Counted from the stretch's first letter, positions 46,438-63,822 are shown. The stretch is DNA of 64,000 bases from an uncultured Bacilli bacterium (GCA_944355355.1 CALVQE010000002.1:704-64703), one strand, 5' to 3'. The notes: generated by a model from the letters alone, not told the origin. Program-made: numbers and translations.

Positions 46438-46474
46438 AAAAAAAGAGATACATTAGCCGTTAAGTGCTTATCTC
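46438..46474 (-). terminator. Rho-independent terminator (minus strand)
   Basis: On the minus strand: gagataagcacttaacggctaatgtatctc followed by a T7 run. Confidence 0.6.
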
Positions 46475-48908: not shown

Positions 48909-50363
48909 ATGAATTTAAATGAATTTCAAAAAAGTGGAGTGGGAACTATTAACGTTACCGACTCTTTAAAAGCGCCCTTATTGGGCCTAAAAATTGAGTT
49001 AAATGAAAACTCAAGTATTCCACAGACAAATGATTTAATCATTTCTGTCTCAAAAGGAGAGGATACCAAAGAAATAAAGTATCCGTTGACGTCACCTTTA
49101 TACCGAATAAATTCGGTAAGTGATGTATTTCTTATTGAACCAAGTTTTGAAGGCAACAAAGTGTCTATGAAAGCTAAAGTAAGTCGCAAAATTGGTATTC
49201 AACATGTTGAAAGTGAAATCCACGTTGGAGACGATCTCAGTGGTAAAACTATTAGAACAATTGAAGGACTAAGTGCGATTAAATCACTCGTAAATGAATC
49301 ACTAATTACAACAAATAATTACGAGATAAAAGTGCAAGCTCGTGATATTTATGATAATGGAGTTTTAAAAGCCACAAGATATGAATTAATAGAAACCCAA
49401 AATAATGCGATATTATACTGGGAAGAAGATTCTGATACAATTGGTATAACTACTTCTGGATTTTCTTCGTATATATTACCAGCTGACTTTGGAGTTGTTA
49501 CAGCTATACATAGTAGTGCAAATACCTGTTTAGTATTTTATAATACAAATACAAATATTTTAGACGAAGAAACAATAGAAGAGCTAGATTACCAGCCTAT
49601 TATTCTATTTGAAGGAGAAAATAGTATTTCATGTAACTATGAGAACGCTTCGATTGAACTTGTTTATCCTAAAAATAATGACTTAACGAAGTATTTTCTC
49701 GCAAATACCTATACCTATAGTCTAAACAATGAAGATAAATTCTTGACTTTAGATGATCTATATTTTAAAAACTGTTTCACAGAAATTGAAGAAAATATTA
49801 TCAATGCAATTTTTAATAAATTAACGATAAAATGTCTTGATTCGACAACAGGAAATTTTTCTTTAGACTGTGATGGAAACTTAGTTGTTAATAGCATTAC
49901 AACCAAAGTTCAAGATGAAGCGTCATCGGATATAGACTTTGATCAAATTTATCCGATAGGTTCTATTTACATGAGTGTAAATAATGTGAATCCAAGTACT
50001 TTATTTGGTGGTACTTGGCAGGCCTTTGCATCAGGAAGAACAATTGTAGGTGTAGACGCATCTCAAACAGAATTTAATACAGTTCAAAAAGCTGGTGGTT
50101 CTAAAATGCAGACCTTGACTGAAGCTCAATTGCCTTTAGTAGGAGGACAAATTGCAATTCACGGTGGGGAAAGCGGATCGAATTTATGGCAACCAACAGG
50201 CGTCTTCTCTTCGTCAGCAGTTAATGCAGGAAAGTATAAAACCATGAATCAAGCTTCTGGAGCATCTTCTATTGGTGTGTTAGATTTCCGATTTGGTAGT
50301 GGAGAAGCACATAATAACTTACCACCATATATTACAGTGTATATGTGGAAAAGGGTAGCATAA
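48909..50363 (+). CDS. Phage tail-fibre/baseplate-like protein with a C-terminal tail-collar-type domain (MdpB/COG4675-like)
   Basis: C-terminus IYPIGSIYMSVNNVNPSTLFGGTWQAF...GGSKMQTLTEAQLP...GEAHNNLPPYITVYMWKR matches the tail-collar signature (HNN.PPY..VY.W.R). The N-terminal 330 aa are unrecognised. Strong RBS gaaggag. Confidence 0.7.
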   Translation: MNLNEFQKSGVGTINVTDSLKAPLLGLKIELNENSSIPQTNDLIISVSKGEDTKEIKYPLTSPLYRINSVSDVFLIEPSFEGNKVSMKAKVSRKIGIQHVESEIHVGDDLSGKTIRTIEGLSAIKSLVNESLITTNNYEIKVQARDIYDNGVLKATRYELIETQNNAILYWEEDSDTIGITTSGFSSYILPADFGVVTAIHSSANTCLVFYNTNTNILDEETIEELDYQPIILFEGENSISCNYENASIELVYPKNNDLTKYFLANTYTYSLNNEDKFLTLDDLYFKNCFTEIEENIINAIFNKLTIKCLDSTTGNFSLDCDGNLVVNSITTKVQDEASSDIDFDQIYPIGSIYMSVNNVNPSTLFGGTWQAFASGRTIVGVDASQTEFNTVQKAGGSKMQTLTEAQLPLVGGQIAIHGGESGSNLWQPTGVFSSSAVNAGKYKTMNQASGASSIGVLDFRFGSGEAHNNLPPYITVYMWKRVA

Positions 50364-50373
50364 GGTGATTTCT

Positions 50374-53300
50374 ATGAAAGAAATTATTTCCCTTAGAAAA
50401 CCCAGAGAAAAACATTTTCTAAATGAAGATGGCACATTCACAGTGCAAATGTATGATCATGATATTCATTATTTAGCAAATGGTGAATATAAAGAAATCG
50501 ACAATTCATTAATAGAATTGGATTCTTGTTATCAAACGAGTTCTAATGCATTTATTGTTTCTTTTGCAAAACAAAAAAATCAAGAATTGCTTAAAATAGA
50601 AAAGGATAATCATTATTTAAAATTTTTTCTGGATACAAATCAAACTTTTAAATTATTGGCTCAAAAGTATTCAATAACATATCAAGATATTTTAAAAGAT
50701 ATAGACATAAAGTATTCTTTAAAAAACAATCAAATAAAGGACACTATATGGATAAATAAACCAACAGAAGATTTACCCAAAATAAAATATATTATTGAAA
50801 CAGATTTGAAATTAATCTTAAAAAACAACTCTATTTTTATATATGATGGTGATAAGTTTATTTCTAAAATAGAACCACCAACATTGATGGATAGCCAAAA
50901 GAATAAGTACAATATCGTTTACAATTTAGTGGAATCTGAATCGGGATACGTTTTAACCTTTAAATTTGAATCAAATATATTTCATAATCGAGAACTATAT
51001 CCTTTTATAATAGATCCAACGATTACAAATTCAGAAGAAAAAACAGTTTATGATACTTATATTTATTCTGGAGAAGAAAATAAAAATTACAATTTGGAAG
51101 ATTCGTTGCATGTTGGAGTAAATGAATCAAATAAAATATATAGATCATTAATAAAGTTTACATTGCCAACCATAGGTACTGGATATGAAATCGTTGATGC
51201 TACGGCATCTTTGGTAAGTCATGTAAGTGATTTTGTTGCCTTAAATTCTATTTACACCCATCAAACATTAGAAGCGCATCAGATCAATACAGAATGGAAT
51301 GAGGAAAGTGCCACATGGAATACAATGCATAATAAATATAATGAGCACATTGAAGATTACTTTCAGGCTTATAAAACTGAATATGACGCACCAAATAATA
51401 CCTATAACTTAAAAACAACTTCATTTAATATCACAAATATAGTAAAAAAGTGGTATGCTGGTGAAGCAAACAATGGTGTTTTATTGAAATTAGAAGATGA
51501 AATATATGGCGAAAATAGTGAACACATTTTTTATTCTAAAAACAATACTATCACGGAAACTAATGATGATATAGAAGATCCAAAACCATACCTCATCATT
51601 CGTTATAAAAACTTTAACGGACTAGAAGACTATATGACTTATCAAACAATCGATTTTCAAAACGGCAAAGGATACGTAAACAATTTAACAGGAAATTTAA
51701 CAACCGTATTTCATGTGAATCAAACAATAGGTGGGAAATTCCCTGTTAATTTAAATCTTATTTATAATAGTAACGATGCCGTTTTAAAGAAAAATATAGG
51801 TTTAGGTTTAGGTTATCGTTGGAATTTTTCTCAAACTATTGAGGAAATAACAATAGGAGAAGAACCATATTTGGCCTATATTGATGCCGATGGTACAACG
51901 CATTATTTTTATCAGTCAGATGAACATACATATCAAGACGAAGATGGATTAAATCTTACTATAAGTAAGGATAATTCTACATATGTTATGACGGATGCTT
52001 ATAAAAATAAAAAAATCTTTGAAAAAAAAGAGAATACTTATTATCTGGTTAAGATGATTGATACTTATCAAAATGAAGTTCATTTAGAATATGGCGAAAA
52101 TAATCGTTTGATTAAAATCACTGATGCTAATAATGAAACAATAAATATTTCGTATGGAATAATAAAAATCACAACAACAAGTTCTTATACGACAAGTACC
52201 TTAAATAGACCACTTATAAAAATTACTGATTTAATAACCAAAACAGGTACAACCGTATTTTCTTACAACTCATCAAATTTAATCGATAATATAACAGATG
52301 AAAACGGCTTGAAAACAGAATTTGACTATTATAATAATAGCCCTTATCGAATGAAGAAAATAACCGAAAAAAGTCTTCAGGATACAACCGGAAATAGTTT
52401 GGAATTTTTCTATTCTTTCCTTGTAACAAAAGTAGTCAATCAAAAAAATCAAATTTTGACTTATGCTTTTAATGAACAAGGAAATACCATAAGTGTAACA
52501 AATCTAGATGAATCCTTAGATTTGAAAAATGCTTATGGAACAGAAAATATTTATGTTCAAAATAAATTAGCTTTAAATATTCCTTTAACAAAATATGTAA
52601 AAAATTTATTTGAAGATCCAAGTTTTGAAAATAAAACGGGTACAATTATCTATGATGTGGGTGTTATAGATACTACAAACGCTAGAAGTGGTCAAAAGTG
52701 TGTTCGGACAAATGGTTATGAAATAGAAATTCCTTTACCAATGGTAGAAACAGCAGGATATTATACCTTCAGTGGCTATTTCAAACACACAAGCGCCATG
52801 GAAATAAGCTTGCACAGTTCTTCCACAAGTATAACAGAAACGAAACATTATTTGAAAGCAGATGAATATCAAAGATATTTTTTGACGGCTCATTTAGAAG
52901 CAAATACGCCGTATTATATAAACGTTTTTCCTGTAAATAACGCAACGATTTATATGGACGACTTTCAATTTGAAAGCGGTCAGGTAGCAAATTACTTTAA
53001 TTTAATTAATAATTCAGATTTCAGCAATGGTATGGAAGGATATGAAAGTGCTGTGTTTAGTTTATCTGGCGAAGAAGTCGTAAACGATGATTCAGTAGTA
53101 ACAATAGCAAATAATCAAAAAGCATATCAAATGAATTGTAAATCAAAATTAAGTAAAAGTTTAACAAAACGATTAAATATTGAAGGAAAAAAAGGAGATA
53201 CATATCGTCTATCCTTCTGGTATAAAAACGAAGGGTTAAGAGAAGGAACAATGGCTAGTGGTAATATTGCTTTACTAGGGTTTAGTTATAAAGTCGAAGT

Positions 53301-56300
53301 GCCTCATGGTGTACCAACATACGGTTTAAACTGTCATGCAACTGAATGGCAATATTTTGAACGAATTATCGTGGCAGAAGAGGATTACTCAAGTATTCTA
53401 TTAAGTATTATGGCACAATTTAATGTGAATAAATTGTATATTACAAACCTTTACCTTGTTAAAGATTTTGGCGGTAGTTCATATACTTATGATGAAAATG
53501 GTAATCTTATATCAGCTACGGATACCTCTAATTCTACAAATACATTTCAATATGATTCCAACAATCAATTAGTAAGTAATTTTTCTCCTAAGGGTAACCA
53601 TTTTCAATTTGAATATGATAATAATGATCCGGAACAGTTGAGACAAGGAATTTCGTCAAAAGGAATAGCCAATCGTCTTTACTATGATGAAAATGGAAAT
53701 CCTATACAAACCATTATTAAAAATGTTAAAAATATTAAGGATTTTACAAAAGAATACTTTTATATTCGTAAAAAAGCAACAGACAAATATTTATTTTCTG
53801 ATTTCCATGGTAATATACCTGTTTTAAAAGACTTTGAATGTAACCTAAGTAAATTTCGACTGGAAAGTGATGAAGATAATTACTATTATATAAAAACAGA
53901 TCTTATGCCTTATTATTTTGCCTATCGTGAAAGCATTAGTGAAAAGGTCGTTCTTACTAAGAATAAAGAAGAAGCAAGCTTGTTTGAACTGATTGAAAAT
54001 AAAAACGGAAGTTATACTTTACGAATCAAAAAAGTTTACGCTAATGATTCAGGAGAACTAACTTATGATGCCTGTATTAGTTTTGATGAAAATGATAGTT
54101 TAATTATTGAAAATTATATTATGGATAATCCAGATCAAGAATTGTTTCTTGAAAGCGCCGAGACTCCATTATATATTGAATCTAAAGCTATTTATCAAAA
54201 TAACGGCAAATTTATCTCTAAAACAATAGATGCCTTAGATAAAGTGACAACTTATGATATTAATGAAATCACTGGTCTAACAAATTCCATCACAGATCCG
54301 TCGCAAACAACTACGTATTACGAATATAATCAAAAAGAGCAAATATCAAAAATTAAGAAAAATGAAAAAGAGATACTTTACGCATATAATACTCAAAACC
54401 TACTAGAAAAAATTACAAGCAATAACAAAGAATATACATTTACCTATGATGAATTTCTAAATCGTCTTCAAACAAAAATAAACAATCAAATTCTAGCAAC
54501 CAATAACTATGATGAGAACAATGGTGGATTAACTCGTATTGATTATGGAAACAATACATCTATATCCTATACTTACGATGAATTTAATCGTTTGAAAACA
54601 AACATAAGAGATGATTCTATTTACAGTTATTACTACGATAATATGAATAATTTAAGCAAAATTACTTCAAATAATGAAACATATGAATACAGTTATGATT
54701 TTGCAGGCAGACTAATTAGTTATTTATATAACCAAAAAGACTATTTCACAGGAAAAAATAGTATTGACTATGAGTATGATATTAATAGCAATGTTACAAA
54801 AAAAAGTCTCAATAATTTGATTGTAACAGAATATGATTACGATGAAGACGACGAAATTGTGAAAGTCACCATTGGGGATATAAACTTAAATTATCAAAGA
54901 GATTATTTAGGAAGACTTACTTCAAAAAACATTAACAACCAACTTCCAGTAGAATATACTTATTATACAAATGGAAACAAGACATCATTAATTCTTAAAA
55001 GCATGAAAATAGAAGATGATTTATATGAATACTATTATGATGATGTCTATAATTTATCAAAAGTATTTAAAAACCACAGTCTATTATATGAATATCAATA
55101 TGATGCTTTTCATGAATTACTGAGTGAACACAATTATGAAACAAAAAGAACTTATCGCTATGTTTATGATGGAGCCGGAAATATTCTTTCAAAGAAAGAA
55201 TATGAACTAAACACTTCAAATTTACTACACGAAGACACATATACTTATAACAATACAACTTGGGAAGATCAACTAACCAAATTTAATGATACTTCTATAA
55301 CTTATGATGAAATTGGAAATCCGATTTCTATTGGCAATGTGACTTTATCTTGGAAAAACGGAAGAGAGTTAAGATCATTAATAGCAGACAATTTAAATGT
55401 GAATTATTTTTACAATAAAGATGGAATTCGTCGTAAAAAAATAGTAAATAATATCGAAACAGAATACTTTACAGAAAACGGAGCTATATTAATTGAAAAA
55501 AGTGGAAATAATGTGATATATTATTTACGAGATGACAATAATAATTTATTAGGATTTATGTATAATGGGACAACCTATTATTATCAAAAAAACTTACAAG
55601 AAGACATTATTGGAATCTATAATAACAACTATGAACTAATTGCTAAATATCAATACGATGCTTGGGGCAAACTACTAAAAATTACAAATGCAAGTGGCGA
55701 AGAAATTACTGATACTAACCATATTGCTTATATCAATCCTTATCGTTATCGTTCATACTATTATGATTCAGAAACAAAACTATACTACTTAAACAGCAGA
55801 TATTACAATCCAGAATGGGGTAGATTTATTAATGCGGATAATTTAATATTGCAAAACACTGATACTATAATTAGTAATAATATGTATTTATATTGTGATA
55901 ATAATTGTGTTAATAAACTAGATCAGAATGGTCATCATATTTCTCGGACAACTTTGAGAATTTTAAAGGAATATTCATATGAAATTGTCAAGATCGATGA
56001 TAATGCAGCATATACGGAAATACAAATTGGAGAAAGTTATTATGTTGCTATCATTTCTGGTAATGCCATACATTTTGATTTTAATCAAAATCCAAAACTT
56101 ACTGATAATTCGTATACGATCGCTCATGCTCTATATAACGCATACACTGATTATTATGGAGAAAAGATGGTAGGTAGAACATTTGGTGGGCTTGAGTTGG
56201 AGTTAGGATTGCATGAGACGGCATATCGACTTGGAATAATGGAAGAAAATTCGAAAGTGGCTGATCTGGGAACGGTAAAAACCGATTCTAATGCAATTGT

Positions 56301-56451
56301 GTTCGAAATGGCAGCTTCAGTATCAAAACCAGTTTCAAAAGTGGTACAAGAAGAAACTAAAAATTATTGTCCCATGCCCAAGCGTATAAGTCCAAAGCGT
56401 TTAGTTCGATCATTTTTAGGATGGGTATCAAAATTATTTATGATAATTTAA
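50374..56451 (+). CDS. Rhs/YD-repeat polymorphic toxin (DNRLRE-type N-terminal domain, CBM-like inserts, Rhs shell, novel C-terminal toxin domain)
   Basis: Many YD repeats (YTYDENGNLIS, FQYDSNNQLVS, YSYDFAGRLIS...). The core ends with YRYRSYYYDSETKLYYLNSRYYNPEWGRFINADN...NMYLYCDNNCVNKLDQNGH, followed by a 170-aa unrecognised C-terminus. No signal peptide or LXG domain is evident. ATG 50374 follows aaggtga, 10 nt after the upstream stop. Confidence 0.9.
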   Translation: MKEIISLRKPREKHFLNEDGTFTVQMYDHDIHYLANGEYKEIDNSLIELDSCYQTSSNAFIVSFAKQKNQELLKIEKDNHYLKFFLDTNQTFKLLAQKYSITYQDILKDIDIKYSLKNNQIKDTIWINKPTEDLPKIKYIIETDLKLILKNNSIFIYDGDKFISKIEPPTLMDSQKNKYNIVYNLVESESGYVLTFKFESNIFHNRELYPFIIDPTITNSEEKTVYDTYIYSGEENKNYNLEDSLHVGVNESNKIYRSLIKFTLPTIGTGYEIVDATASLVSHVSDFVALNSIYTHQTLEAHQINTEWNEESATWNTMHNKYNEHIEDYFQAYKTEYDAPNNTYNLKTTSFNITNIVKKWYAGEANNGVLLKLEDEIYGENSEHIFYSKNNTITETNDDIEDPKPYLIIRYKNFNGLEDYMTYQTIDFQNGKGYVNNLTGNLTTVFHVNQTIGGKFPVNLNLIYNSNDAVLKKNIGLGLGYRWNFSQTIEEITIGEEPYLAYIDADGTTHYFYQSDEHTYQDEDGLNLTISKDNSTYVMTDAYKNKKIFEKKENTYYLVKMIDTYQNEVHLEYGENNRLIKITDANNETINISYGIIKITTTSSYTTSTLNRPLIKITDLITKTGTTVFSYNSSNLIDNITDENGLKTEFDYYNNSPYRMKKITEKSLQDTTGNSLEFFYSFLVTKVVNQKNQILTYAFNEQGNTISVTNLDESLDLKNAYGTENIYVQNKLALNIPLTKYVKNLFEDPSFENKTGTIIYDVGVIDTTNARSGQKCVRTNGYEIEIPLPMVETAGYYTFSGYFKHTSAMEISLHSSSTSITETKHYLKADEYQRYFLTAHLEANTPYYINVFPVNNATIYMDDFQFESGQVANYFNLINNSDFSNGMEGYESAVFSLSGEEVVNDDSVVTIANNQKAYQMNCKSKLSKSLTKRLNIEGKKGDTYRLSFWYKNEGLREGTMASGNIALLGFSYKVEVPHGVPTYGLNCHATEWQYFERIIVAEEDYSSILLSIMAQFNVNKLYITNLYLVKDFGGSSYTYDENGNLISATDTSNSTNTFQYDSNNQLVSNFSPKGNHFQFEYDNNDPEQLRQGISSKGIANRLYYDENGNPIQTIIKNVKNIKDFTKEYFYIRKKATDKYLFSDFHGNIPVLKDFECNLSKFRLESDEDNYYYIKTDLMPYYFAYRESISEKVVLTKNKEEASLFELIENKNGSYTLRIKKVYANDSGELTYDACISFDENDSLIIENYIMDNPDQELFLESAETPLYIESKAIYQNNGKFISKTIDALDKVTTYDINEITGLTNSITDPSQTTTYYEYNQKEQISKIKKNEKEILYAYNTQNLLEKITSNNKEYTFTYDEFLNRLQTKINNQILATNNYDENNGGLTRIDYGNNTSISYTYDEFNRLKTNIRDDSIYSYYYDNMNNLSKITSNNETYEYSYDFAGRLISYLYNQKDYFTGKNSIDYEYDINSNVTKKSLNNLIVTEYDYDEDDEIVKVTIGDINLNYQRDYLGRLTSKNINNQLPVEYTYYTNGNKTSLILKSMKIEDDLYEYYYDDVYNLSKVFKNHSLLYEYQYDAFHELLSEHNYETKRTYRYVYDGAGNILSKKEYELNTSNLLHEDTYTYNNTTWEDQLTKFNDTSITYDEIGNPISIGNVTLSWKNGRELRSLIADNLNVNYFYNKDGIRRKKIVNNIETEYFTENGAILIEKSGNNVIYYLRDDNNNLLGFMYNGTTYYYQKNLQEDIIGIYNNNYELIAKYQYDAWGKLLKITNASGEEITDTNHIAYINPYRYRSYYYDSETKLYYLNSRYYNPEWGRFINADNLILQNTDTIISNNMYLYCDNNCVNKLDQNGHHISRTTLRILKEYSYEIVKIDDNAAYTEIQIGESYYVAIISGNAIHFDFNQNPKLTDNSYTIAHALYNAYTDYYGEKMVGRTFGGLELELGLHETAYRLGIMEENSKVADLGTVKTDSNAIVFEMAASVSKPVSKVVQEETKNYCPMPKRISPKRLVRSFLGWVSKLFMII

Positions 56452-56474
56452 TAAAAAAGCAAAAGAGGTTATAA

Positions 56475-57140
56475 ATGAAAAATAAAAATTCTAAGGAAAG
56501 AAATAAATATACATTTCAAAGCAAGCTATATTATGTCATAGATATAGTTCTTGTGATATTTGCGTTAGCTCGTTACTATTTTTACCCTTTGCAAATTGGC
56601 TTTTCAATCAAAGGCGTCAATGTTTTAGTATTAGGGTTTACTATAATTTGGTTTTTTGTTCGTTTGAGTTCAATATTTAAAGAAAACAGAATCTCTTTAA
56701 AAACAATTAATATCGTCATAACTTGCTTTCTATTTATAACAATAGGTCGAGGTGTTTTTTGCGAATTTGTAAATAATGCAGTCTTTCCGGAATTTATTAG
56801 AGATATTTATGTTTTTCCAAATAGTACAAGCGAAAGATTTGTTGTGACTTCAAACATTGAAATTATTCCAACAGCTACTACTATTGTATATTATGAAAAA
56901 ACGTTGTTTCCCGGAATCACTTGTAAAACGGTTATAGATACATTTTCGGAAGAGATTCATATGGATACAAATACTGAATATACATTTAAATTTTATAAAG
57001 AATATTTTAAGAGTCAAAATTTAAATCTTAATTATGATAAATATATAGAGTATATGAATAATCAAGAAGATAAAGGATTTTGTAATCTCGATATAGCTAG
57101 AATGAATACTCAGAAAGAAATTCATTATTATATTAAATGA
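56475..57140 (+). CDS. Multi-TM membrane protein, candidate cognate immunity protein
   Basis: The first gene after the Rhs stop (23-nt gap, RBS aagagg). Three to four TM helices, then a soluble C-terminal part. Confidence 0.5.
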   Translation: MKNKNSKERNKYTFQSKLYYVIDIVLVIFALARYYFYPLQIGFSIKGVNVLVLGFTIIWFFVRLSSIFKENRISLKTINIVITCFLFITIGRGVFCEFVNNAVFPEFIRDIYVFPNSTSERFVVTSNIEIIPTATTIVYYEKTLFPGITCKTVIDTFSEEIHMDTNTEYTFKFYKEYFKSQNLNLNYDKYIEYMNNQEDKGFCNLDIARMNTQKEIHYYIK

Positions 57141-57155
57141 TTGGCGGAGGTATAA

Positions 57156-57890
57156 ATGGTAAGAAGATTTGAAGAACTTAAAACAGGAGATACATTCGCT
57201 TGGCAAATCACAACAGAAGAATACCCGGATTTTAAAAATAGATATTTAATAATAACCTATTATTATAATAAGTATTCTGAAAATGATCAGTGCAAAATAT
57301 TTAGGGTGAAAATAACAAAAACGGATAAAATACCTCAAAATATTGAAGAAATAAGTAAGTTAGAAAGTATTAAACTAGCTTATAATATTTATGATTTAGC
57401 CACTCAAGAATATAGTGAGGCTAAAGCCGTAAAACCGGACAAATATGGATATATTTATCAATATACAGTCGAAGTATTATGTAAACGTAAAACGATACCA
57501 AAACAAATGATTTATATAGGTAATTTTAAAATAAATGCCATTGAAAACGAGTTTTACTTTGCTAAAGGCCCTAGAAATCAATATCAAGCTTCATGGAAAT
57601 ATTTTGAGGAAAATATATTGCAATCCTATGTACTTTATAATCAAAAACAATTTATTGGTTACACTAAAGAAGGAAATAAAGAAATCTATGCCCGTCAGTT
57701 AGATTTTGAAAATTTTAGAAAACACTTAAAAAAATTAGGAGATGCTATTGATGGACCAAATGGCAACGAAGTGTTAAAAAAATTAGGCATTGATATTGAA
57801 AATGAGGTTCCTCTAGCAGACGCTTTAACTTATGTAGGACCGGATAAAGATGAAGGTATTAAAAAAAATCTTAGTGCTTTTATCAAATAA
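57156..57890 (+). CDS. 244-aa cassette protein, family A (divergent member)
   Basis: Shares GDTFA...YL(I/L)(I/L)T...KIT/LTKTxxIP...LTYVGPDKDEGIKK with the two other 244-aa ORFs. Confidence 0.6.
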   Translation: MVRRFEELKTGDTFAWQITTEEYPDFKNRYLIITYYYNKYSENDQCKIFRVKITKTDKIPQNIEEISKLESIKLAYNIYDLATQEYSEAKAVKPDKYGYIYQYTVEVLCKRKTIPKQMIYIGNFKINAIENEFYFAKGPRNQYQASWKYFEENILQSYVLYNQKQFIGYTKEGNKEIYARQLDFENFRKHLKKLGDAIDGPNGNEVLKKLGIDIENEVPLADALTYVGPDKDEGIKKNLSAFIK

Positions 57891-57912
57891 TTGACGGAGG
57901 AATAATATGGTA
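57826..57912 (+). repeat. Cassette junction repeat, type A (copy 1)
   Basis: cttatgtaggaccggataaagatgaaggtattaaaaaaaatcttagtgcttttatcaaataattgacggaggaataatatggta. Confidence 0.8.
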
Positions 57913-58641
57913 ACAAAAAATAAAAGATTATCAAAAAAGTGTGATATTGGAGATACATTTGCTATAGAAATAAAAAGTGATAAATATCCAGAGTATAATG
58001 GCAAATATCTTATTCTAACAAAAAGTAAGTATGGTGATTTTGTTTGGGATATAAAAGGTTATGCGTCTTTCTATGTTAAACTTACTAAGACAAAGGAAAT
58101 TCCAAAAACCCAAGAAGAGTTAGATGAACTTGAATATATTATTAGTTCTGCTAATGCTCCAGTACTTGAAGAAAGGTATGTTGCCCCAGGTTATGAAATG
58201 CCTATACCAGATCAATATGGCTTAATTTATTCTTATTCGTTTTCTTACATGAATTTGAGTAGAGAAACTATAAATTCTGCATGTTATCTTGGAAATTATC
58301 CTGTGAAATATCCTCAGAATGAATACATTTCTTCTACCGGATTTAGAGGAGAAAGTAGCATTGATAAATGGACATTTCCTGATAAAACTCTTAGTCATTA
58401 TAAATGGTATAATTTAAAACAAAACGATCTTTATACTAAAGAGGGAAATGAATTATTTCATCAAAGAACTCAAAGTGAGGCCCAATTTTACAAAGAAATG
58501 TTAGAAAGAGAAAAACTAATCTTTGGCCATGAAGAAGAATATTTAGCATGGATGGGAATTGATACATCACAAGAAGAGGAAGAAGATAGCCTTACTTATG
58601 TAGGACCTGATAAAGATGAAGGTACTAAGAGAAAATCTTAG
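57907..58641 (+). CDS. 244-aa cassette protein, family A (paralog 2)
   Basis: About 90% identical by eye to 60046-60780. Confidence 0.65.
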   Translation: MVTKNKRLSKKCDIGDTFAIEIKSDKYPEYNGKYLILTKSKYGDFVWDIKGYASFYVKLTKTKEIPKTQEELDELEYIISSANAPVLEERYVAPGYEMPIPDQYGLIYSYSFSYMNLSRETINSACYLGNYPVKYPQNEYISSTGFRGESSIDKWTFPDKTLSHYKWYNLKQNDLYTKEGNELFHQRTQSEAQFYKEMLEREKLIFGHEEEYLAWMGIDTSQEEEEDSLTYVGPDKDEGTKRKS

Positions 58642-58695
58642 TGCTTTTTTCTTAAACATCAGGTATACTTTTGATAGAAAGAAGTATTCAAAATG
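58591..58695 (+). repeat. Cassette junction repeat, type B (copy 1)
   Basis: ...gatgaaggtactaagagaaaatcttagtgcttttttcttaaacatcaggtatacttttgatagaaagaagta...atg. Confidence 0.8.
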
Positions 58696-59175
58696 AAAAA
58701 GAAGAAAAAGATTTTAATTATTAGCATTGTATTAGCCGTAATTGGGATTATAGTTTATTATTTGCATGAAGATACTATTGTATTTAAAATAAACTATGGT
58801 GTATCTATTCCACAATCTATAGAGTATAACGATATTTTACCCGGAGACGGATATGCTGACTTGCCTATGTATAATCAATTAGTATTTCGAAAACAATTCA
58901 CTCAAAAACATCTAAGTTCTTTTAAAAAAATTGATCAAAATAATAAAGAAAAACTTATCCAACTTATTGAAGTATATTACAATAATTTGGATTGTGAAGG
59001 CCAAGTGCTTTTCAAAGAATCATTTCCTCCGGAAAGTACAAATGAGAACAACTACTTTTTTGTGAAAATGACTGAAAAAAGGTTATCAATTCTAATATAT
59101 GATAAGAATAATAAAACTCTTCATGAACTATCAACTGTATCTCATCAAGGATTCAATATTAATTTGGATTGGTAA
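58693..59175 (+). CDS. N-terminally anchored 160-aa cassette protein (family B1)
   Basis: MKKKKKILIISIVLAVIGIIVYYL anchor. Preceded by a type-B junction repeat. Confidence 0.55.
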   Translation: MKKKKKILIISIVLAVIGIIVYYLHEDTIVFKINYGVSIPQSIEYNDILPGDGYADLPMYNQLVFRKQFTQKHLSSFKKIDQNNKEKLIQLIEVYYNNLDCEGQVLFKESFPPESTNENNYFFVKMTEKRLSILIYDKNNKTLHELSTVSHQGFNINLDW

Positions 59176-59189
59176 ATGGCTTCCAATAA

Positions 59190-59263
59190 GTACTAAGAAA
59201 AAATCTTAGTGCTTTTTTCTTAAACATCAGGTATACTTTTGTTAGAAAGAAGTAAGCATAATG
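59190..59263 (+). repeat. Cassette junction repeat, type B (copy 2)
   Basis: gtactaagaaaaaatcttagtgcttttttcttaaacatcaggtatacttttgttagaaagaagta...atg. Present even though the preceding gene is not a family-A member. Confidence 0.8.
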
Positions 59264-60013
59264 AAAAAGAAGAAAAAAAGAAATTATTATAATTTAATTG
59301 TTCATGCTATTAGAATTTTTAGTATTATGGGCTGTGTAACAGGATTTTCGCTTATATTTGTTACTGACGAAAAATATACAAGATATCTTATCATTATGCT
59401 TTTTACTTTTTTTGTCCTAATGTATATCTCTATAATATTAGCTGATAAATATAAGAACAAAATTACTATAGATATAGAAAAACCAAGAGCTCCTCATACC
59501 TATAAGATAATAGATGAATATCAAATGAAACAAAACATCAAAGATAAACTAAACATGATGAATTATCAAGTAATACCTGATGTTTTAACTGATACAACAT
59601 TATATGGCATGAAACAATATAAATGGTATTATGCTAAAGGTCATAAAAATGTATTTAATCTATGGGCTGAATTTGATATTCCTGAATTTACTAAAGAAAC
59701 ATCAGATTATCTAATTACACAAAGAGAGAATATTCAAAAGAAGCTTAAACAAAAAGAAAGATGTTTTTGTATCATCTTTCTCATAAGAGTAGAAAAGAAA
59801 AACAAAGAGTTATCCAAGTATTTAAAAAGAAGAACAGTTGAGGGATATCAAAACTATGGATTAATGGCAATCCTTATAGAAGAAGAACAAAGAATATATG
59901 TACCATTACCAGAATGGGCAGATGTTGATTGTTATTTGATCCGTAGAAGATTTGAAAAGATATTAAAGGGAAGTGTAATAAAAGAAAAGAGAGATACTAA
60001 GAAAAACTCTTAA
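59261..60013 (+). CDS. Two-TM 250-aa cassette protein (family B2)
   Basis: MKKKKKRNYY..., two TM helices. Preceded by a type-B junction repeat. Its last codons and stop lie inside a type-A junction repeat. Confidence 0.55.
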   Translation: MKKKKKRNYYNLIVHAIRIFSIMGCVTGFSLIFVTDEKYTRYLIIMLFTFFVLMYISIILADKYKNKITIDIEKPRAPHTYKIIDEYQMKQNIKDKLNMMNYQVIPDVLTDTTLYGMKQYKWYYAKGHKNVFNLWAEFDIPEFTKETSDYLITQRENIQKKLKQKERCFCIIFLIRVEKKNKELSKYLKRRTVEGYQNYGLMAILIEEEQRIYVPLPEWADVDCYLIRRRFEKILKGSVIKEKRDTKKNS

Positions 60014-60051
60014 TGCTTTTATCAAATAACTGACGGAGGAATAATATGGTA
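59996..60051 (+). repeat. Cassette junction repeat, type A (copy 2)
   Basis: actaagaaaaactcttaatgcttttatcaaataactgacggaggaataatatggta. Confidence 0.8.
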
Positions 60052-60780
60052 GCAAAAAATAAAAGATTATCAAAAAAATGTGATATTGGAGATACATTTG
60101 CTATAGAAATAAAAAGTGATAAATATCCAGAGTATAATGGCAAATATCTTATCCTAACAAAAAGCAAGTATGGTGATTTTGTTTGGGATATAAAAGAAAG
60201 AATTTCCTTTTACATTAAACTTACTAAGACAAAGGAAATTCCTAAAACCCAAGAAGAGTTAGATAAACTTGAATATGTTATTAGTTCTGCTAAGGCTCCA
60301 GTACTTGAAGAAAGGTATGTTGCCCCAGGTTATGAAATGCCTATACCAGATCAATATGGCTTGATATATTCCTATTCTTTTTCTTACATGAATTTGAGTA
60401 GAGAAACTATAAATTCTGCATGTTATCTTGGGAATTATCCTGTGAAATATCCTCAGAATGAATACATTTCTTCTACTGGATTTAGAGGAGAGGGGAGAAT
60501 AAATAAATGGACATTTCCTGATGAAATTATTGATTGCTATAATTTGTATAATTTAAAACAAAACGATCTTTATACTAAAGAGGGAAATGAATTATTTCAT
60601 CAAAGATCTCAAAGTGAGGCCCAATTTTATAAAGAGATGCTAGAAAGAGAAAAACTAATCTTTGGCCATGAAGAAGAATATTTAGCATGGATGGGAATTA
60701 ATACATCACAAGAAGAGGAAGAAGATAGCCTTACTTATGTAGGACCGGATAAAGATGAAGGTATTAAGAAAAAAACTTAG
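60046..60780 (+). CDS. 244-aa cassette protein, family A (paralog 3)
   Basis: Near-duplicate of 57907-58641. Confidence 0.65.
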   Translation: MVAKNKRLSKKCDIGDTFAIEIKSDKYPEYNGKYLILTKSKYGDFVWDIKERISFYIKLTKTKEIPKTQEELDKLEYVISSAKAPVLEERYVAPGYEMPIPDQYGLIYSYSFSYMNLSRETINSACYLGNYPVKYPQNEYISSTGFRGEGRINKWTFPDEIIDCYNLYNLKQNDLYTKEGNELFHQRSQSEAQFYKEMLEREKLIFGHEEEYLAWMGINTSQEEEEDSLTYVGPDKDEGIKKKT

Positions 60781-60823
60781 TGCTTTTTTCTCAAATATTA
60801 GGTATACTTTTGTTAGAAAGAAG
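60730..60823 (+). repeat. Cassette junction repeat, type B (copy 3, more diverged)
   Basis: ...gaaggtattaagaaaaaaacttagtgcttttttctcaaatattaggtatacttttgttagaaagaag. Confidence 0.75.
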
Positions 60824-60877
60824 CATTCATTATTCTATTATTATAATTATTTATTCATGAAGTTAGGAGGTGGAAGG

Positions 60878-61033
60878 ATGTATAAAACGATTGTGATTAG
60901 TTATTCACCAAAGGCAGATGATATGGCACAAAAAATAGAAGAAAAAGCAAATGAAATGTTAGAAAAAGGATATGAGTTAGTTACTATGTCCATTACTGGA
61001 ACAGCAAAAGCAATTTTAGTATTTAAAAAGTAA
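60878..61033 (+). CDS. Small 51-aa protein
   Basis: Strong RBS taggaggtgg. MYKTIVISYSPKADDMAQKIEEKANEMLEKGYELVTMSITGTAKAILVFKK. The ORF-track entry 60755-61033 is this ORF extended upstream through the junction repeat. Confidence 0.55.
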   Translation: MYKTIVISYSPKADDMAQKIEEKANEMLEKGYELVTMSITGTAKAILVFKK

Positions 61034-61055
61034 GTAAAAAATAAGGAGGCCAACT

Positions 61056-61589
61056 ATGAATAAAATTATAATTTATGGATCTTGCTATGGGACTACAAAA
61101 CAATATGCTGAAGAACTTTCGAAAAGAACCAATATAAAGGCGGTGTCTTTTAAAGAAGTTACTTCCCAAATAAATGAGTATGATAATATTATTTACTTAG
61201 GAGGATTATACGCTGGTGGCGTATTAGGCCTTTTAAAAACACTAAAAAAGATAAAGAATATATCAGATAAAAAAATTATTCTTGTAACAGTTGGTCTTGC
61301 AGACCCGACAATTGAAGAAAATAAAACAAATATTCGGAAACAGCTAAAGAGTCAGATATCTAAAGAAATTTTTGAAAACATAACAATATTTCATTTAAGA
61401 GGTGGGATAGATTATTCAAAATTAAACTTTGGTCATAAGACAATGCTGAAATTACTATATAATTCAGTTAAAAGATTACCGGAAGATGCCCAAACAGCAG
61501 AAGATAGGGCGATGATTGAAACGTATAATAAAAAGGTCAATTTCGTTGATTTTTCCTCTTTGGATAAAATCATCAACGAAATAGAATAG
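61056..61589 (+). CDS. Flavodoxin-domain protein
   Basis: MNKIIIYGSCYGTTKQYAEEL matches the flavodoxin-like FMN-binding N-terminus. RBS aaggagg. Confidence 0.65.
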   Translation: MNKIIIYGSCYGTTKQYAEELSKRTNIKAVSFKEVTSQINEYDNIIYLGGLYAGGVLGLLKTLKKIKNISDKKIILVTVGLADPTIEENKTNIRKQLKSQISKEIFENITIFHLRGGIDYSKLNFGHKTMLKLLYNSVKRLPEDAQTAEDRAMIETYNKKVNFVDFSSLDKIINEIE

Positions 61590-61709
61590 TTTGTATAAGT
61601 AAATTGTTTCTAATTTTTGGGTAAAGGTTTGCAAATAAAACGCTATTTACTAAAAAGAGATTGAGAGTTTAAGTAAATTCTGATACAATTTTAGTAAGAG
61701 GTGTTCGCT

Positions 61710-62288
61710 ATGTATTTAGAAGATAAAACAATTTTAGCAAATGTAAAGAAAAGCGTAAAAGAATCCTTTATTGCTCCTTTACTTATTATCATTTTTGCAA
61801 TCGTTTTATATCGTAATCCCGAGAACTTTATCTCGGTAGCTGTGAGTATTTTTGGCTATGGAGCAATATTCATTGGTGTACTAGATTTAGTATTTTACTT
61901 TCGTTTAAATGAGAGTGAAAAACTTTTAAGTAAACATATGAATCAAGGTATTTTATTAATTGCCTTTGGGATTATTGCTTTCTTTGAAAACGCCTTGCTA
62001 AGTGAAATGATCACGGTTTTACTAGGAGGATATATCTTATTTCAAAACGCCAGTCGGATTGGTCTAGCTCTATACTTAAAAAATAAAACCAAAAATGCTT
62101 GGATTTATGTCCTTGTCATGGCTTTAATCAATCTTATTATTGGTTTATTTGTTATCATCAATCCGTTTCAAAATGTTCAACTAAATCTTTATTTGGCAAG
62201 CCTTTTAGTAATCGCTGAAGTCTTTTTAATCATTCAAAATATTCTCATTTTAATAGGAATCCGTAGTCATGACAAAGAAGATAAGTAA
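61710..62288 (+). CDS. HdeD/DUF308-like six-TM membrane protein
   Basis: Repeated paired-helix pattern. ATG 61710 follows agaggtg. Confidence 0.55.
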   Translation: MYLEDKTILANVKKSVKESFIAPLLIIIFAIVLYRNPENFISVAVSIFGYGAIFIGVLDLVFYFRLNESEKLLSKHMNQGILLIAFGIIAFFENALLSEMITVLLGGYILFQNASRIGLALYLKNKTKNAWIYVLVMALINLIIGLFVIINPFQNVQLNLYLASLLVIAEVFLIIQNILILIGIRSHDKEDK

Positions 62289-63822
62289 GATTGTTGCTAT
62301 ACCTTTTAAGCTTCTTTTCAGTCGTTTTACTTTAGCGTTACTATCCGTTTTAATTCAAGCTGCTATTATTGGAGCCATATTCTTTTTCTTTGATAAATAT
62401 CTGCTCTATTATGTCGGCAGCGTTGTTCTTTTTCAAATAGGTTTAACCATCTATATTATCAATTCTAGTATCCAAAGTGAATTTAAGACAGCTTGGATTA
62501 TTTTAGTCTTGTCTTTACCTGTTGTTGGAGGTTTCTTTTTTCTTTTTTGCAAGATTGAACCGACGGTTAAAGCCATGCAAGAAAGATTAAAACGAAGTAA
62601 AAATGAAAATTATAAATATTTACCCCAAAACAGAGAAATTATTGAAAAATTAACGGAAGAAGACCAATCGTTTATAAGTCATGCCAATTACCTTTATAAG
62701 GTTGGTCATTTCCCTGTTTATTATGGCGAAGATATGAAATATTTTGCTTGTGGTGAAGAGGCTTATCCTGATTTGCTTTTCAAACTAAAAGAGGCTAAAA
62801 AATTTATCTTTTTAGAATTCTTTATTATTGCTAATGATGAGATGTGGCAAGAAATTTTAGATATTTTGATTTCAAAGGCTCAAAGTGGTGTTGAAGTCCG
62901 TGTTTTATATGATGGCACTTGTTCTTTTACCCTTTTACCTCGCAACTACCCGGAACTATTAAAAGAGAAGGGGATTAAGTGTTTAATTTTCTCACCAATT
63001 GTTCCTTTGATTTCAACCCATTATAACAATCGTGATCACCGTAAAATCATTGTAATTGATGGAAAATATGGCTATACAGGAGGAATGAATTTAGCAAGTG
63101 AATACATTAACAAAAAGGAAAGATTCGGCTATTGGAAAGATAATCTTTTCCGGTTCTCTGGCGCGGCCGTAAATAGTTTGACCGTTCTTTTTTTAGAATC
63201 TTGGTATCTCTCTCAAAGAAAAAAAGAGATTGCTTACGAACCTTATTTAACGGCTACAAATAATCATAAGAAAGATGGCTACCTTGTTGTTTTAGGGGAT
63301 GATCCATGTGACAATGAGCCAATTAGTAAGATGACTTACATTCATTTACTATATACAGCAAAGAAGAGCATTGACATTGTTACACCATATTTTATTGTCG
63401 ATGGCGAATTTTTAAATGCTTTGTTTTACGCGACAAAAAGAGGTGTTCGCATCCGTTTGATTTTACCAGGAATTCCGGACAAAAAACTCATTAATTACGT
63501 AGCTAAAACATATTACAAGGAACTAGTGACGCACAATGTCAAATTGTATGAATATTCCAAAGGATTCACGCATTTAAAAGAAATGATTTGTGATGATAGC
63601 TCATGTTTTCTTGGCACCTCAAACTTAGACTACCGTAGTTTATACCTTCATTATGAAGATGGTTTGTATTTATATAAAAGTGAGGAAGTCCAAAGAATTA
63701 AGGAAGATTATGATCAAATGATTGCCTCTTCAAAGCTCATCACTTTTGAGGAAATAAAAAAAATAAGCAAAGTAAAAATCTTTTTAGGAAAAATTTTGAG
63801 AATATTTGGACCATTATTATAA
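62269..63822 (+). CDS. cls: Cardiolipin synthase
   Basis: N-terminal two TM helices. Two HKD motifs (HRKIIVIDG...GGMNL and HLKEMICDDSSCFLGTSNLDYRS). Confidence 0.9.
   Translation: MTKKISKIVAIPFKLLFSRFTLALLSVLIQAAIIGAIFFFFDKYLLYYVGSVVLFQIGLTIYIINSSIQSEFKTAWIILVLSLPVVGGFFFLFCKIEPTVKAMQERLKRSKNENYKYLPQNREIIEKLTEEDQSFISHANYLYKVGHFPVYYGEDMKYFACGEEAYPDLLFKLKEAKKFIFLEFFIIANDEMWQEILDILISKAQSGVEVRVLYDGTCSFTLLPRNYPELLKEKGIKCLIFSPIVPLISTHYNNRDHRKIIVIDGKYGYTGGMNLASEYINKKERFGYWKDNLFRFSGAAVNSLTVLFLESWYLSQRKKEIAYEPYLTATNNHKKDGYLVVLGDDPCDNEPISKMTYIHLLYTAKKSIDIVTPYFIVDGEFLNALFYATKRGVRIRLILPGIPDKKLINYVAKTYYKELVTHNVKLYEYSKGFTHLKEMICDDSSCFLGTSNLDYRSLYLHYEDGLYLYKSEEVQRIKEDYDQMIASSKLITFEEIKKISKVKIFLGKILRIFGPLL

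Follow-up and report, generated by a model that had tools for sequence, protein, structure and literature searches.

The 3′ end of the Rhs polymorphic-toxin locus described here likely carries an orphan (poly-)immunity array, which homologous recombination probably reshuffles, acting between paralogues and at the terminator/leader segments that cassettes share. The locus lies in a 64-kb stretch of DNA (the window) from an uncultured Bacilli or Tenericutes-like bacterium of the gut. It adds one more case to a class of loci already known and does not define a new type of system. A first-pass annotation of the window had described a modular array of immunity-like genes beside an Rhs toxin gene; such an array is present, and it varies between strains, a conspecific MAG (L002) differing in cassette number and order. 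Under our proposal, the Rhs gene has an exchangeable C-terminal toxin tip and the next gene, here encoding a 221-aa membrane protein, would provide the matching immunity. The five genes that follow (A1, A2, B1, B2 and A3) are probably spare immunity genes, which would be retained because they protect against tips fired by related strains.

The Rhs gene and its immunity-like neighbours

The Rhs protein has a DNRLRE domain at its N terminus (E 3.7e-23 in a domain search) and a YD shell with RHS_repeat and TEN_YD-shell matches. Its variable tip had no family match in Pfam, NCBIfam or PADLOC and no homology to the GIY-YIG tip at the same position in L002. The adjoining 221-aa protein, with hydrophobic segments at residues 14–99, is by position a candidate cognate immunity protein of the window tip; a 96% identical copy of its gene occurs as an orphan in L002, L047 and L048.

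Downstream, the co-directional genes listed by the first-pass annotation (A1, A2, B1, B2, A3 and a 51-aa ORF) are all present, but five cassettes, not six, lie between 57156 and 61033. The 51-aa ORF was rejected as a cassette, because this small gene is widespread and, in other genomes, forms a pair with a flavodoxin gene. It belongs to 346 clusters (the best 120 of the 346, those listed, are 78–98% identical), and in L057–L059 a Flavodoxin_5 gene comes immediately after it; the window's own Flavodoxin_5 domain scores E 1.6e-23.

A1, A2 and A3 are paralogues, as proposed, with 91% identity between A2 and A3 and 35% between A1 and A2. A profile search of this family (family A) recovered 287 representatives, none of them in Pfam. 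In five independent loci (L001, L002, L050, L052/L053 and L056), family A lies directly 3′ of the same GIY-YIG-like Rhs C-terminal toxin, its start overlapping the 3′ end of the homologous tip by 4–7 nt. The five tips have 35–49% mutual identity and are all linked by BLASTP, and those of L001, L002 and L050 reach the Pfam GIY-YIG cut-off. Because it adjoins the same toxin in five independent loci, family A is probably the immunity protein of the GIY-YIG-like nuclease tip, and gene neighbourhood thus supports the suggested link to toxin neutralisation. The tip itself is absent from the window strain and present in L002.

B1 and B2 had been placed in one family. Both start MKKKKK and have N-terminal hydrophobic segments (residues 3–31 in B1, two segments in B2), but we found no mutual homology and treat them as two families. 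B1 resembles a 145-aa gene located after an orphan Rhs tip in a related species (L004). B2, which has only 12 close database clusters, is a candidate immunity gene by its position.

Table 1 Features of the Rhs locus and its array, in window coordinates
Feature	Position	Strand	Remark
Rhs/YD-repeat toxin gene, conserved part	50365..55839	+	2028-aa ORF
Variable C-terminal toxin tip of the Rhs protein	55840..56451	+	type unassigned by family searches
221-aa membrane protein gene	56475..57140	+	directly 3′ of Rhs stop codon
A1, orphan family A gene, subtype of L001	57156..57890	+	64% identical to gene after L001 GIY-YIG Rhs tip
J1 hairpin (core)	57852..57881	+	RNA fold −13.6 kcal/mol, z −4.0; stem columns from alignment
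Type-A leader	57882..57906	+	contains GGAGGAATAAT, matching last codons of GIY-YIG toxin gene
A2, orphan family A gene	57907..58641	+	97% identical to last family A gene of L002
J2 hairpin	58618..58648	+	13-bp stem, fold −25.4 kcal/mol, z −5.6, then UUUUUUCUU
Type-B leader	58649..58692	+	repeat family D3; TATACT box and purine-rich Shine–Dalgarno region
B1, 160-aa N-terminally anchored immunity-like gene	58693..59175	+	BLASTP E 2e-6 to L004 gene
J3 hairpin	59186..59216	+	non-coding, 11 nt 3′ of B1 stop codon; fold z −2.95
Type-B leader	59217..59260	+	repeat family D3
B2, 250-aa membrane-anchored gene	59261..60013	+	last codons and stop codon from junction
J4 hairpin, weakened by G>A (cttaAtgc)	59990..60020	+	z −0.13
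Type-A leader	60021..60045	+	homology to L002 Rhs gene 3′ end begins at 60035
A3, orphan family A gene	60046..60780	+	97% identical to L002 family A gene directly after GIY-YIG Rhs tip
J5 hairpin	60757..60787	+	present in minimum-free-energy fold; whole 137-nt segment only z −1.4
Diverged type-B leader, AT-rich stretch and strong Shine–Dalgarno site of 51-aa gene	60788..60877	+	75% identical D3 member
51-aa gene and Flavodoxin_5 gene	60878..61589	+	conserved pair bounding array; 51-aa ORF 60878–61033

The junction repeat and its predicted hairpin

The 23-nt core TAAGAAAAAATCTTAGTGCTTTT occurs five times in the 64-kb window (≤3 mismatches), always on the plus strand and at the junctions where it had been reported, against 0.00 copies expected from shuffles. 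It does not mark every boundary, as had been claimed: the 221-aa/A1 boundary and five boundaries in L002 are without it, and the supposed diverged copy before 57156 has the common ~25-nt Shine–Dalgarno/start leader but no core. The exact core is restricted to a single species and its sister lineage L001, and a metagenome scan for it gave 1 true match of 41.

What the first-pass annotation had overlooked is the predicted fold of the core, a hairpin with a U-run after it. At the end of each cassette, GAAGGTACTAAGA, an A-rich loop and TCTTAGTGCTTTT form a stem-loop of ~30 nt with a T-run next. The stem-loop takes in the final five or six codons of the cassette together with its stop codon; the A2 stop codon TAG, for instance, falls within the 3′ arm of J2. 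Pairing holds in 95% of stem cells across 12 core copies, and these copies contain no compensatory double changes within the lineage. The 3′ arm is U-rich, so that any purine-rich 5′ arm pairs with it. The L001 copy folds with z −3.0, and J3 was the sole terminator-like site from a scan of 55800–61700 (59188–59214, 11 pairs plus a T tail). The window copy of J4 has no stable fold; its ortholog in L002, at 9964, retains the G, and the window's A is shared by an independent contig (L060). The gtactaag after B1, previously interpreted as a scar of cassette shuffling, is the 5′ arm of the hairpin.

Distant family A genes (L050, L051, L055 and L056) also have a hairpin and U-run that cover or adjoin the stop codon, and the sequence of the stem differs from one to the next. 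Judged from sequence and predicted folding, the core is most likely an intrinsic terminator-like hairpin or attenuator at family A 3′ ends, and the junction is best read as this ancestral hairpin plus an ordinary leader. Because the distant genes keep the hairpin and not the stem sequence, the junction would serve as passive homology and not as a dedicated recombination site; of the ‘defined junction element’ proposed earlier, the repeat is real. Termination may nevertheless be weak or absent, given AU-rich stems and, for type A, no more than U4 downstream. A terminator after every cassette would, in addition, leave the source of downstream transcription unexplained.

The two alternative continuations of the core, type A (two copies) and type B (three copies), were found as described (Table 1). 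Type A provides a strong Shine–Dalgarno site and an ATG, and it also contains the last codons of a toxin gene: the matching segment of L002 (3560–3577) is the 3′ end of its Rhs gene. In our reading, the type-A leader is a remnant of the 3′ end of the GIY-YIG toxin gene, of which ~19 nt are left before both A2 and A3. The type-B leaders, ~45 nt long, combine a TATACT box with a purine-rich Shine–Dalgarno region and belong to an 88-nt family with 94% and 75% identity (repeat families D3 and D4 were found in the window), and the L041 copy of the diverged leader has the canonical type-B form. The TATACT box of the first type-B leader was not flagged as a promoter by a consensus scan.

The hairpin also contributes coding sequence. 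The 3′ end of B2, which encodes DTKKNS and the stop codon, is nucleotide-homologous to family A gene 3′ ends, in agreement with the idea that B2 borrowed its C terminus and stop codon from the repeat. The claim that the core is read in different frames applies to A1, whose A-run is shorter by 1 nt than those of the other copies and gives the shifted tail NLSAFIK, but not to A2 (tct TAG), B2 (tct TAA) and A3 (act TAG), which share stop codon and register. Since the A-run in the loop ranges from 4 to 8 A between copies, it might be a programmed frameshift or phase-variation site that extends or fuses products: the +1 frame is open from A3 through the 51-aa ORF (ORF 60755–61033), and the +1 frame of J2 closes with an ATGA that overlaps the B1 start codon. 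We consider this extremely improbable. All database homologues end in KKKS at the same stop codon, and A-run length and sequence do not differ among the window, L060 and L061; the C-terminal 20 residues are modelled with low confidence (pLDDT 51–57), so short shifted tails are probably neutral, and the 51-aa gene is an independent conserved gene with its own strong Shine–Dalgarno site.

Rearrangement between strains

L002 has the same flanks as the window and a different, GIY-YIG tip. Nucleotide identity of the Rhs core is 99.2% across 52891–55839, after which homology stops, and the cassette genes of L002 number ten, where the window has six (221-aa gene included), and stand in a different order; the fixed gene order that the first-pass annotation had named as its counter-case was thus not observed. 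The orphans are reciprocal, L002 retaining the 221-aa gene and the window three family A genes, such that the orphan of each strain is the gene found after the other strain's toxin tip. Genes for a 241-aa and a 173-aa protein, a GNAT gene and the GIY-YIG tip are present in L002 and missing in the window. A third arrangement occurs in L049, and L004 has classic orphan tip/immunity repeats. The array is flanked by housekeeping genes.

Chimeric contigs, assembled from metagenomes across repeats, could in principle mimic such differences: the array contains 88-nt and 735-nt repeats, contig L041 terminates inside a family A gene, and the differences between L060 and the window are limited to paralogues. 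Yet L060, an independent 19.5-kb contig from another sample, repeats the window arrangement, contigs L046, L047 and L048, likewise from other samples, share the 3′ part of the L002 arrangement, and L002 has its unique genes, leaving an assembly artefact with almost no weight in our estimate. All 44 differences between L060 and the window fall inside A2 or A3, and each (44/44) is the base of the other paralogue, which points to exchange inside the A genes as well, although bubble-popping in metagenome assembly could also be the source.

Between L002 and the window, every internal homology-block end falls in a junction element. Such ends are partly expected when whole-gene cassettes share flanking repeats and do not prove crossovers there. 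The junction might be a conserved regulatory module (terminator or attenuator, leader and ribosome-binding site) that travels with the cassettes without causing their rearrangement, which would proceed by block-wise horizontal transfer and illegitimate recombination, the route suggested for V. cholerae. The hairpin and U-run are ancestral to family A 3′ ends, block ends in shared flanks are expected by construction, and immunity arrays of V. cholerae have been accounted for without specific sites (PMC5361080). We regard this as unlikely, because it explains neither the near-identical family A 3′ ends on the unrelated B1, B2 and L002 GNAT genes nor the replacement of B2's own last codons, and because gain and loss of esaG in S. 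aureus is driven by homology blocks over the 3′ gene end and intergenic region (PMC9484751).

More doubtful still is a role of the hairpin as a genuine site for site-specific recombination, like integron attC or the rAID-1 repeats, at which a recombinase encoded elsewhere in the genome would insert and excise cassettes. An imperfect inverted repeat common to unrelated genes at each cassette 3′ end and between-strain variation in cassette content and order would suit such a site, and Bacteroidales rAID-1 arrays do pair repetitive intergenic sequences with a XerD-family recombinase (10.1101/471110). However, none of the 16 flanking ORFs scanned (36.8–45.8 kb and 48.9–63.8 kb) has a recombinase domain, and the flanks are housekeeping genes. 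The loop/spacer varies from 5 to 8 nt between core copies, the conservation of hairpin over sequence in distant family A genes fits a terminator and not a protein-binding site, the element is missing from the five L002 boundaries, and exchange extends into the A genes.

We favour homologous recombination by the host. The family A 3′ hairpin would have moved onto unrelated cassettes in this lineage, and the resulting 30–90-nt segments common to otherwise unrelated cassettes would be the recombination substrate. Recombination at these segments and between A2 and A3 could then duplicate, delete, reorder and convert cassettes, and toxin tips would be swapped by recombination in the conserved Rhs core.

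Comparison with known systems

The first-pass annotation drew an analogy with orphan toxin/immunity arrays; the array is a member of that class, but immunity-only arrays are already known and no new class is needed. One parallel is with the rAID-1 clusters of Bacteroidales, which consist mostly of immunity genes with repetitive sequence between ORFs and a XerD-family recombinase (Ross et al. 2019), and with integron cassettes. Here, by contrast, the ORFs scanned included no linked tyrosine recombinase, the array does not sit on any recognisable mobile element, and the repeat is terminator-like, without attC-type boxes.

Displacement of Rhs C termini and orphan rhs-CT/immunity modules (Jackson et al. 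2009; Poole et al. 2011, PMC3150448; Koskiniemi et al. 2014, via PMC5361080) resemble, as far as the cited accounts go, the sharp homology break after the conserved core, beyond which a 99%-identical strain has its own tip and immunity gene, and the orphan tip/immunity repeats of L004. Unlike those modules, the window has no orphan toxin tips beyond the residual GIY-YIG gene end before A2 and A3.

Among Firmicutes, the tandem T7SS immunity paralogues of esaG/tipC arrays expand, are deleted and form mosaics through recombination between blocks (Garrett et al. 2022, PMC9484751), comparable to the A2/A3 mosaics and junction-bounded blocks seen here. All genes in those arrays belong to one family (DUF600), whereas here no fewer than four unrelated gene families have the 3′ block, a hairpin plus U-run, in common, and the toxin is an Rhs protein and not an LXG/T7SS substrate.

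Among the closest parallels are the orphan immunity arrays of V. cholerae T6SS clusters, generated by sequential effector displacement (Kirchberger et al. 2017, PMC5361080), and the poly-immunity regions downstream of Rhs effectors at Stenotrophomonas vgrG6 (bioRxiv 10.64898/2026.07.13.738213). The host here is a gut Bacilli/Tenericutes-like bacterium with no T6SS genes among the window ORFs scanned, and the Rhs gene, with its DNRLRE N terminus, follows a gp10_C baseplate-like gene. Like those arrays, the locus has a conserved delivery gene whose toxin end varies, then a probable cognate immunity gene and after it strain-variable, toxin-free immunity genes, and its orphans correspond to toxins that are active in other strains; unlike in V. 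cholerae, where the study detected no specific sites (PMC5361080), a defined repeat here joins unrelated cassettes.

The Rhs locus and its strain variants

Upstream of the array lies a gene for a large YD/Rhs-repeat protein with a conserved core, as expected of an Rhs polymorphic toxin locus, followed on the same strand by a row of small genes. A DNRLRE domain occupies the N-terminus of the Rhs protein (E 3.7e-23; 50365-51900) and its C-terminal 350 aa give a weak RHS_repeat match; the orthologue in L060, an independent 19.5-kb contig from another sample, matches both RHS_repeat and TEN_YD-shell. The toxin tip, the exchangeable C-terminal domain of the window's Rhs protein, matched no family above cut-off in Pfam, NCBIfam or PADLOC. 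The 221-aa gene is, by its position alone, a candidate for the cognate immunity gene of this tip. The array has a GC content of 27-30%, its downstream flank 29-33%.

Features of the Rhs locus, and blocks shared between the window and the conspecific genome L002
Feature	Window	Strand	L002	Remark
484-aa protein, phage baseplate Gp10_C domain	48909-50363	+		phage T4 Gp10 C-terminal domain, E 6e-30
Rhs/YD-repeat protein, 2028 aa	50365-56451	+		ORF
221-aa membrane protein	56475-57140	+
A1	57156-57890	+
A2	57907-58641	+
B1	58693-59175	+
B2	59261-60013	+
A3	60046-60780	+
51-aa ORF	60878-61033	+
Flavodoxin_5 gene, DUF308-like membrane protein, cardiolipin synthase-like gene	3' of 51-aa ORF	+
Shared block	56465-57884		7754-9174
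Shared block	57854-58690		9947-10784
Shared block	58668-60028		5696-7076
Shared block	59193-63809		9148-13764
Shared block	60035-60829		3560-4354

The Gp10 baseplate-domain gene stops 1 nt before the Rhs start, a pairing found again in L060, and the Gp10/DNRLRE pairing hints at a delivery route. Further upstream, a T-box leader match at 47059-47249 (E 6.6e-10; its 51 bits fall short of the gathering score, 93) precedes a tyrosyl-tRNA synthetase gene by about 380 nt, with a 114-aa ORF in between. Next to it, about 0.9 kb (46130-47050) holds only short ORFs on both strands and has the lowest GC of the neighbourhood (0.28); its sole Rfam match, to mir-753, is weak and probably spurious. A search of the array itself against Rfam gave no match even at E 1.

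We compared the locus with that of L002, an uncultured Bacilli genome of the same species. The flanks are the same and the Rhs cores are 99.2% identical up to position 55839, just past ...GRFINAD, where homology ends sharply and the two tips differ. The L002 tip is a GIY-YIG domain, directly followed by an A3-type gene. Behind this gene come a 241-aa relative of B2, a 173-aa relative of B1, B1, a 256-aa B2 and a GNAT acetyltransferase gene, and then the 221-aa gene, a frameshifted A1-type pseudogene, B2, an A2-type gene and the 51-aa and flavodoxin genes. Each strain thus has, as an orphan (a predicted immunity gene without its toxin), the gene found right behind the tip of the other strain. 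Five blocks are shared by the two arrays in a different order (Table), and all of their internal ends lie either within a junction or 10 nt ahead of the 221-aa gene.

Content and order vary further among close strains, as the first-pass annotation had proposed to check. L060 has the window order (99.7% identity), three contigs (L046, L047 and L048) carry the 3' part of the L002 order, and L049 shows a third arrangement, in which the 256-aa B2 and its core are joined directly to the DUF308 gene. Since arrangements recur in independent contigs, the differences in order are unlikely to stem from assembly error. L049 (800-980) lacks the last family A gene together with the 51-aa and flavodoxin genes, so the right end of the variable region can extend past the flavodoxin gene.

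Exchange also affects the paralogues. A2 and A3 are 91% identical as proteins (A1 and A2, 35%); A2-type and A3-type genes have swapped positions between the window strain and L002, and are mosaics. Between the window and L060, all 44 differences over 14.8 kb fall in A2 or A3 and all 44 carry the base of the other paralogue, which could be either gene conversion or bubble-popping by the assembler. These differences lie at 58014-58501 and 60363-60545, and the two copies in L060 differ from each other at only about 7 sites.

The junction repeat and its predicted hairpin

The core of the junction repeat, searched in a 23-nt form, occurs five times in the window at up to 3 mismatches, at the ends of A1, A2, B1, B2 and A3 (J1-J5), and shuffled sequences give no copy, which bears out the repeat that had been read by eye. 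The accompanying claim that the core stands at every boundary does not hold: in a boundary alignment only the leader ...GGCGGAGGTATAAATGGTA precedes A1, and in L002 the core is present at six boundaries and absent at five. One of two alternative leaders follows each core; type B has three copies, which make up an 88-nt repeat family with identities of 94% and 75%.

RNA folding places the core in a stem of 11-14 bp, with the arms GAAGGUACUAAGA and UCUUAGUGCUUUU around an A-rich loop. J2 folds at -25.4 kcal/mol (91-nt segment; z -5.6), and z is -4.0 for J1, -2.95 for J3 and -3.0 for the copy in L001, a sister lineage. Directly 3' of the stem, type-B copies read UUUUUUCUU (U6CUU) and type-A copies UUUUAUC (U4 only). 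A stable stem-loop with a U-run, the form of an intrinsic terminator, is therefore present on the coding strand at these copies. J4 is broken in the window, where a G>A change in the 3' arm abolishes the fold (z -0.13); the L002 orthologue retains the G. A consensus scan of 55800-61700 flagged J3 as the sole terminator-like site. Across 12 core copies 95% of stem cells pair. Compensatory changes are absent from these copies, which are too similar and show one-sided changes only, so that the structural evidence within the lineage is thermodynamic.

The exact core is restricted to this species plus the L001 lineage: a metagenome scan with the query AAWCTTAGTGCTTTTWTCWNA gave 41 matches, of which all but one (L041), the single real relative, are due to chance. 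It is absent from the family A genes of L003 and L004 (34% identical), from a related Tenericutes-like species. Distant family A genes nevertheless have a hairpin and U-run over or at the stop codon, built from different stems when compared by eye without formal alignment: CUUCAAG/CUUGAAG in L050 (z -4.2), GCAUCAAG/CCUGAUGU in L051 and L055, where the stop codon after ...KKKS again lies in the 3' arm, and CUUUGAAG/CUUCAAAG in L056. Structure that is kept while its sequence changes would fit a terminator or attenuator ending a toxin-immunity unit, and would not fit a site recognised by a protein. We infer that the hairpin is a weak terminator or attenuator brought along by family A modules, and the junction element is probably normal regulatory DNA which also provides homology for recombination.

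A different reading makes the hairpin a dedicated cassette-end element copied onto unrelated genes, either an integron-like site served by an unlinked recombinase or a translation-sensitive attenuator; we consider this very improbable. If the attenuator version were true, the position of the stop codon within the 3' arm would give ribosomes control over transcriptional read-through to the spare immunity genes. Among the scanned ORFs (at 36.8-45.8 kb and 48.9-63.8 kb, plus just two minus-strand ORFs from 1-36 kb) none has a recombinase domain. Reading the junctions for an attC or dif-like site found no R-box-like motifs, and the spacer varies in length.

The first-pass annotation had also proposed to check whether the type-B segment, which contains TATACT, acts as an internal promoter. 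The consensus scan lends this no support: the type-B leader was not flagged, and the region has 33 promoter-like sites, against 36.9 in shuffles. On reading, the TATACT has neither a -35 hexamer nor a TG extension. Transcription behind successive terminators could come from read-through or from a weak type-B promoter, the latter without support from the scan.

The core had been described as read in different frames. This is true of A1, which alone, with one base fewer in its A-run, continues to NLSAFIK before its stop; A2 (aga aaa tct TAG), B2 (aaa aac tct TAA) and A3 (aaa aaa act TAG) use the identical core stop codon in one register. All six database clusters of family A end in ...KKKS. The last 20 residues of the A2 structure model are of low confidence, so short tail variants are probably harmless. 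A-run lengths are the same in two independent contigs (L060 and L061), and there is thus no sign of phase variation. Coding by the type-B segment in the +1 frame (LSAFFLNIRYTF...) was considered as two of three differences between type-B copies are synonymous in that frame, and was rejected as all homologues stop after ...KKKS.

Family A, the GIY-YIG tip and the other cassettes

A word-indexed search for relatives of family A returned six clusters, and a profile search of 1.84 billion representatives returned 287 matches at E <= 0.001. None of 48 sampled representatives contains a Pfam domain. An AlphaFold model of A2 built from 9 sequences was poor (pLDDT 54); one built from 48 is confident (pLDDT 87), and its fold has no match in the PDB below E 0.48 (Foldseek).

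In five loci (L001, L002, L050, L052/L053 and L056) a family A gene overlaps the 3' end of the preceding gene by 4-7 nt. The C-terminal domains encoded there form one family, with 35-49% mutual identity and the motif ...Y.VYTL...YVGRT...ARG.EQ...ETYVGGI.W; the domain reaches the Pfam GIY-YIG cut-off in three of the five loci, and it forms an Rhs tip in L001, L002 and L056. This adjacency to one tip family suggests that family A is likely the immunity partner of a GIY-YIG-like Rhs nuclease tip. A place directly 3' of a candidate matching toxin is thus seen for family A, and weakly for B1, which resembles (BLASTP E 2e-6) a 145-aa gene 3' of an orphan Rhs tip in L004.

The toxin and family A genes overlap. 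The Shine-Dalgarno sequence (GGAGG) of family A genes lies in the conserved ...YVGG codons that end the GIY-YIG toxin gene, and the W-stop of the toxin overlaps the immunity ATG (ATGGTAA; L002 3557-3577); the conserved VGG codons supply the ribosome-binding site of the immunity gene. Orphan family A genes retain just about 19 nt of the toxin gene (window 57893-57912 and 60032-60051). The window block from 60035 begins at GGAGGAATAAT, which encodes the final G-G-I-I-W of the toxin in L002, and the type-A leader is therefore a relic of a displaced toxin gene.

Tandem expansion of family A is not limited to the window's species: L055 (2603-4971), an unrelated contig, has tandem family A-like genes of 240, 242 and 254 aa, each of them ending in a hairpin. 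L004 (3008-9889) holds a classic orphan Rhs tip/immunity array with a near-exact 3.9-kb duplication, and its conspecific L003 (2925-6192) a shorter, mostly immunity-only version; these arrays end with or include a family A gene without the junction core.

Family A, B1, B2 and the 221-aa gene have no family above the cut-offs of Pfam, NCBIfam and PADLOC. A weak match of B2 to ThsA (E 4e-4) sits on the hydrophobic N-terminus and was dismissed. B2 has close relatives only; it shows no similarity to the 230-aa gene after the L004 orphan Rhs tip, and no link to a toxin was found. In L002 the GNAT gene (7111-7710; E 1.8e-9) lies inside the array directly 3' of a type-B junction, and is either cargo unrelated to immunity or an immunity gene of a kind not yet recognised.

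The 51-aa ORF, originally counted among the cassettes, is better set apart: in unrelated contigs (L057-L059; 4001-4707) it stands directly upstream of a Flavodoxin_5 gene. The protein has 346 clusters, and the best 120 listed are 78-98% identical. The two genes (60878-61589) form a conserved pair, and many other genomes and metagenome contigs, one annotated Intestinibacter, encode the small protein at about 80-90% identity; such identity across taxa is unusually high for so short a protein. A phage-integrase gene lies near the pair in L057, and the pair may be mobile.

Proposed recombination and comparison with known arrays

We propose that the downstream genes are retained immunity genes that would guard the cell against tips carried by related strains. 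Cassettes would be reordered, duplicated, deleted and converted by homologous recombination of the host, acting on the junction segments of 30-90 nt as well as on paralogues. The first-pass annotation was largely right: the outline of its modular cassette system stands, with the changes that the element is probably ordinary regulatory DNA and that the class of locus is already known.

The value of the locus lies in the candidate pair of GIY-YIG tip and family A and in a clean two-allele comparison. It would extend toxin-displacement immunity arrays to uncultured gut Bacilli of low GC, in which Rhs systems have received little study, and it offers as candidate partner of a GIY-YIG-like Rhs tip an unannotated family of about 240 aa, with 287 representative clusters, no Pfam model and a confident predicted fold without PDB match. 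As a case of shuffling, it presents unrelated cassettes with a common 30-90-nt terminator-plus-leader, at which the homology of two conspecific arrays breaks.

Orphan immunity arrays behind a variable effector are known from Vibrio cholerae, where specific sites were not found and homology-facilitated illegitimate recombination was proposed (PMC5361080), and behind Rhs effectors of Stenotrophomonas (10.64898/2026.07.13.738213); the window locus fits this class. In the esaG arrays of Staphylococcus aureus, also a Firmicute, gain and loss are mediated by a homology block that covers the 3' part of the gene plus intergenic DNA (PMC9484751). The rAID-1 arrays of Bacteroidales have repetitive sequences between genes together with a XerD-family recombinase (10.1101/471110). 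Unlike rAID-1 arrays and integrons, the window locus has no linked tyrosine recombinase among the scanned ORFs, and lacks the core at the 221-aa/A1 boundary as well as at the five boundaries in L002. It works instead like the esaG arrays, with a block over the 3' gene end and intergenic region (repeat families D3 and D4, which cover the junctions) and exchange, of which the L060 part may be an assembly artefact. It differs from them in that A, B1 and B2 have no Pfam family, DUF600/EsaG included, and in that the toxin is an Rhs protein without T7SS linkage. What sets it apart from both the effector-linked and the esaG classes is the nature of its shared block, a terminator-like hairpin, and the spread of that block to at least four unrelated gene families. 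The locus is thus a clean new instance of these arrays with one interesting detail; it introduces no new mechanism, and current ideas stand.
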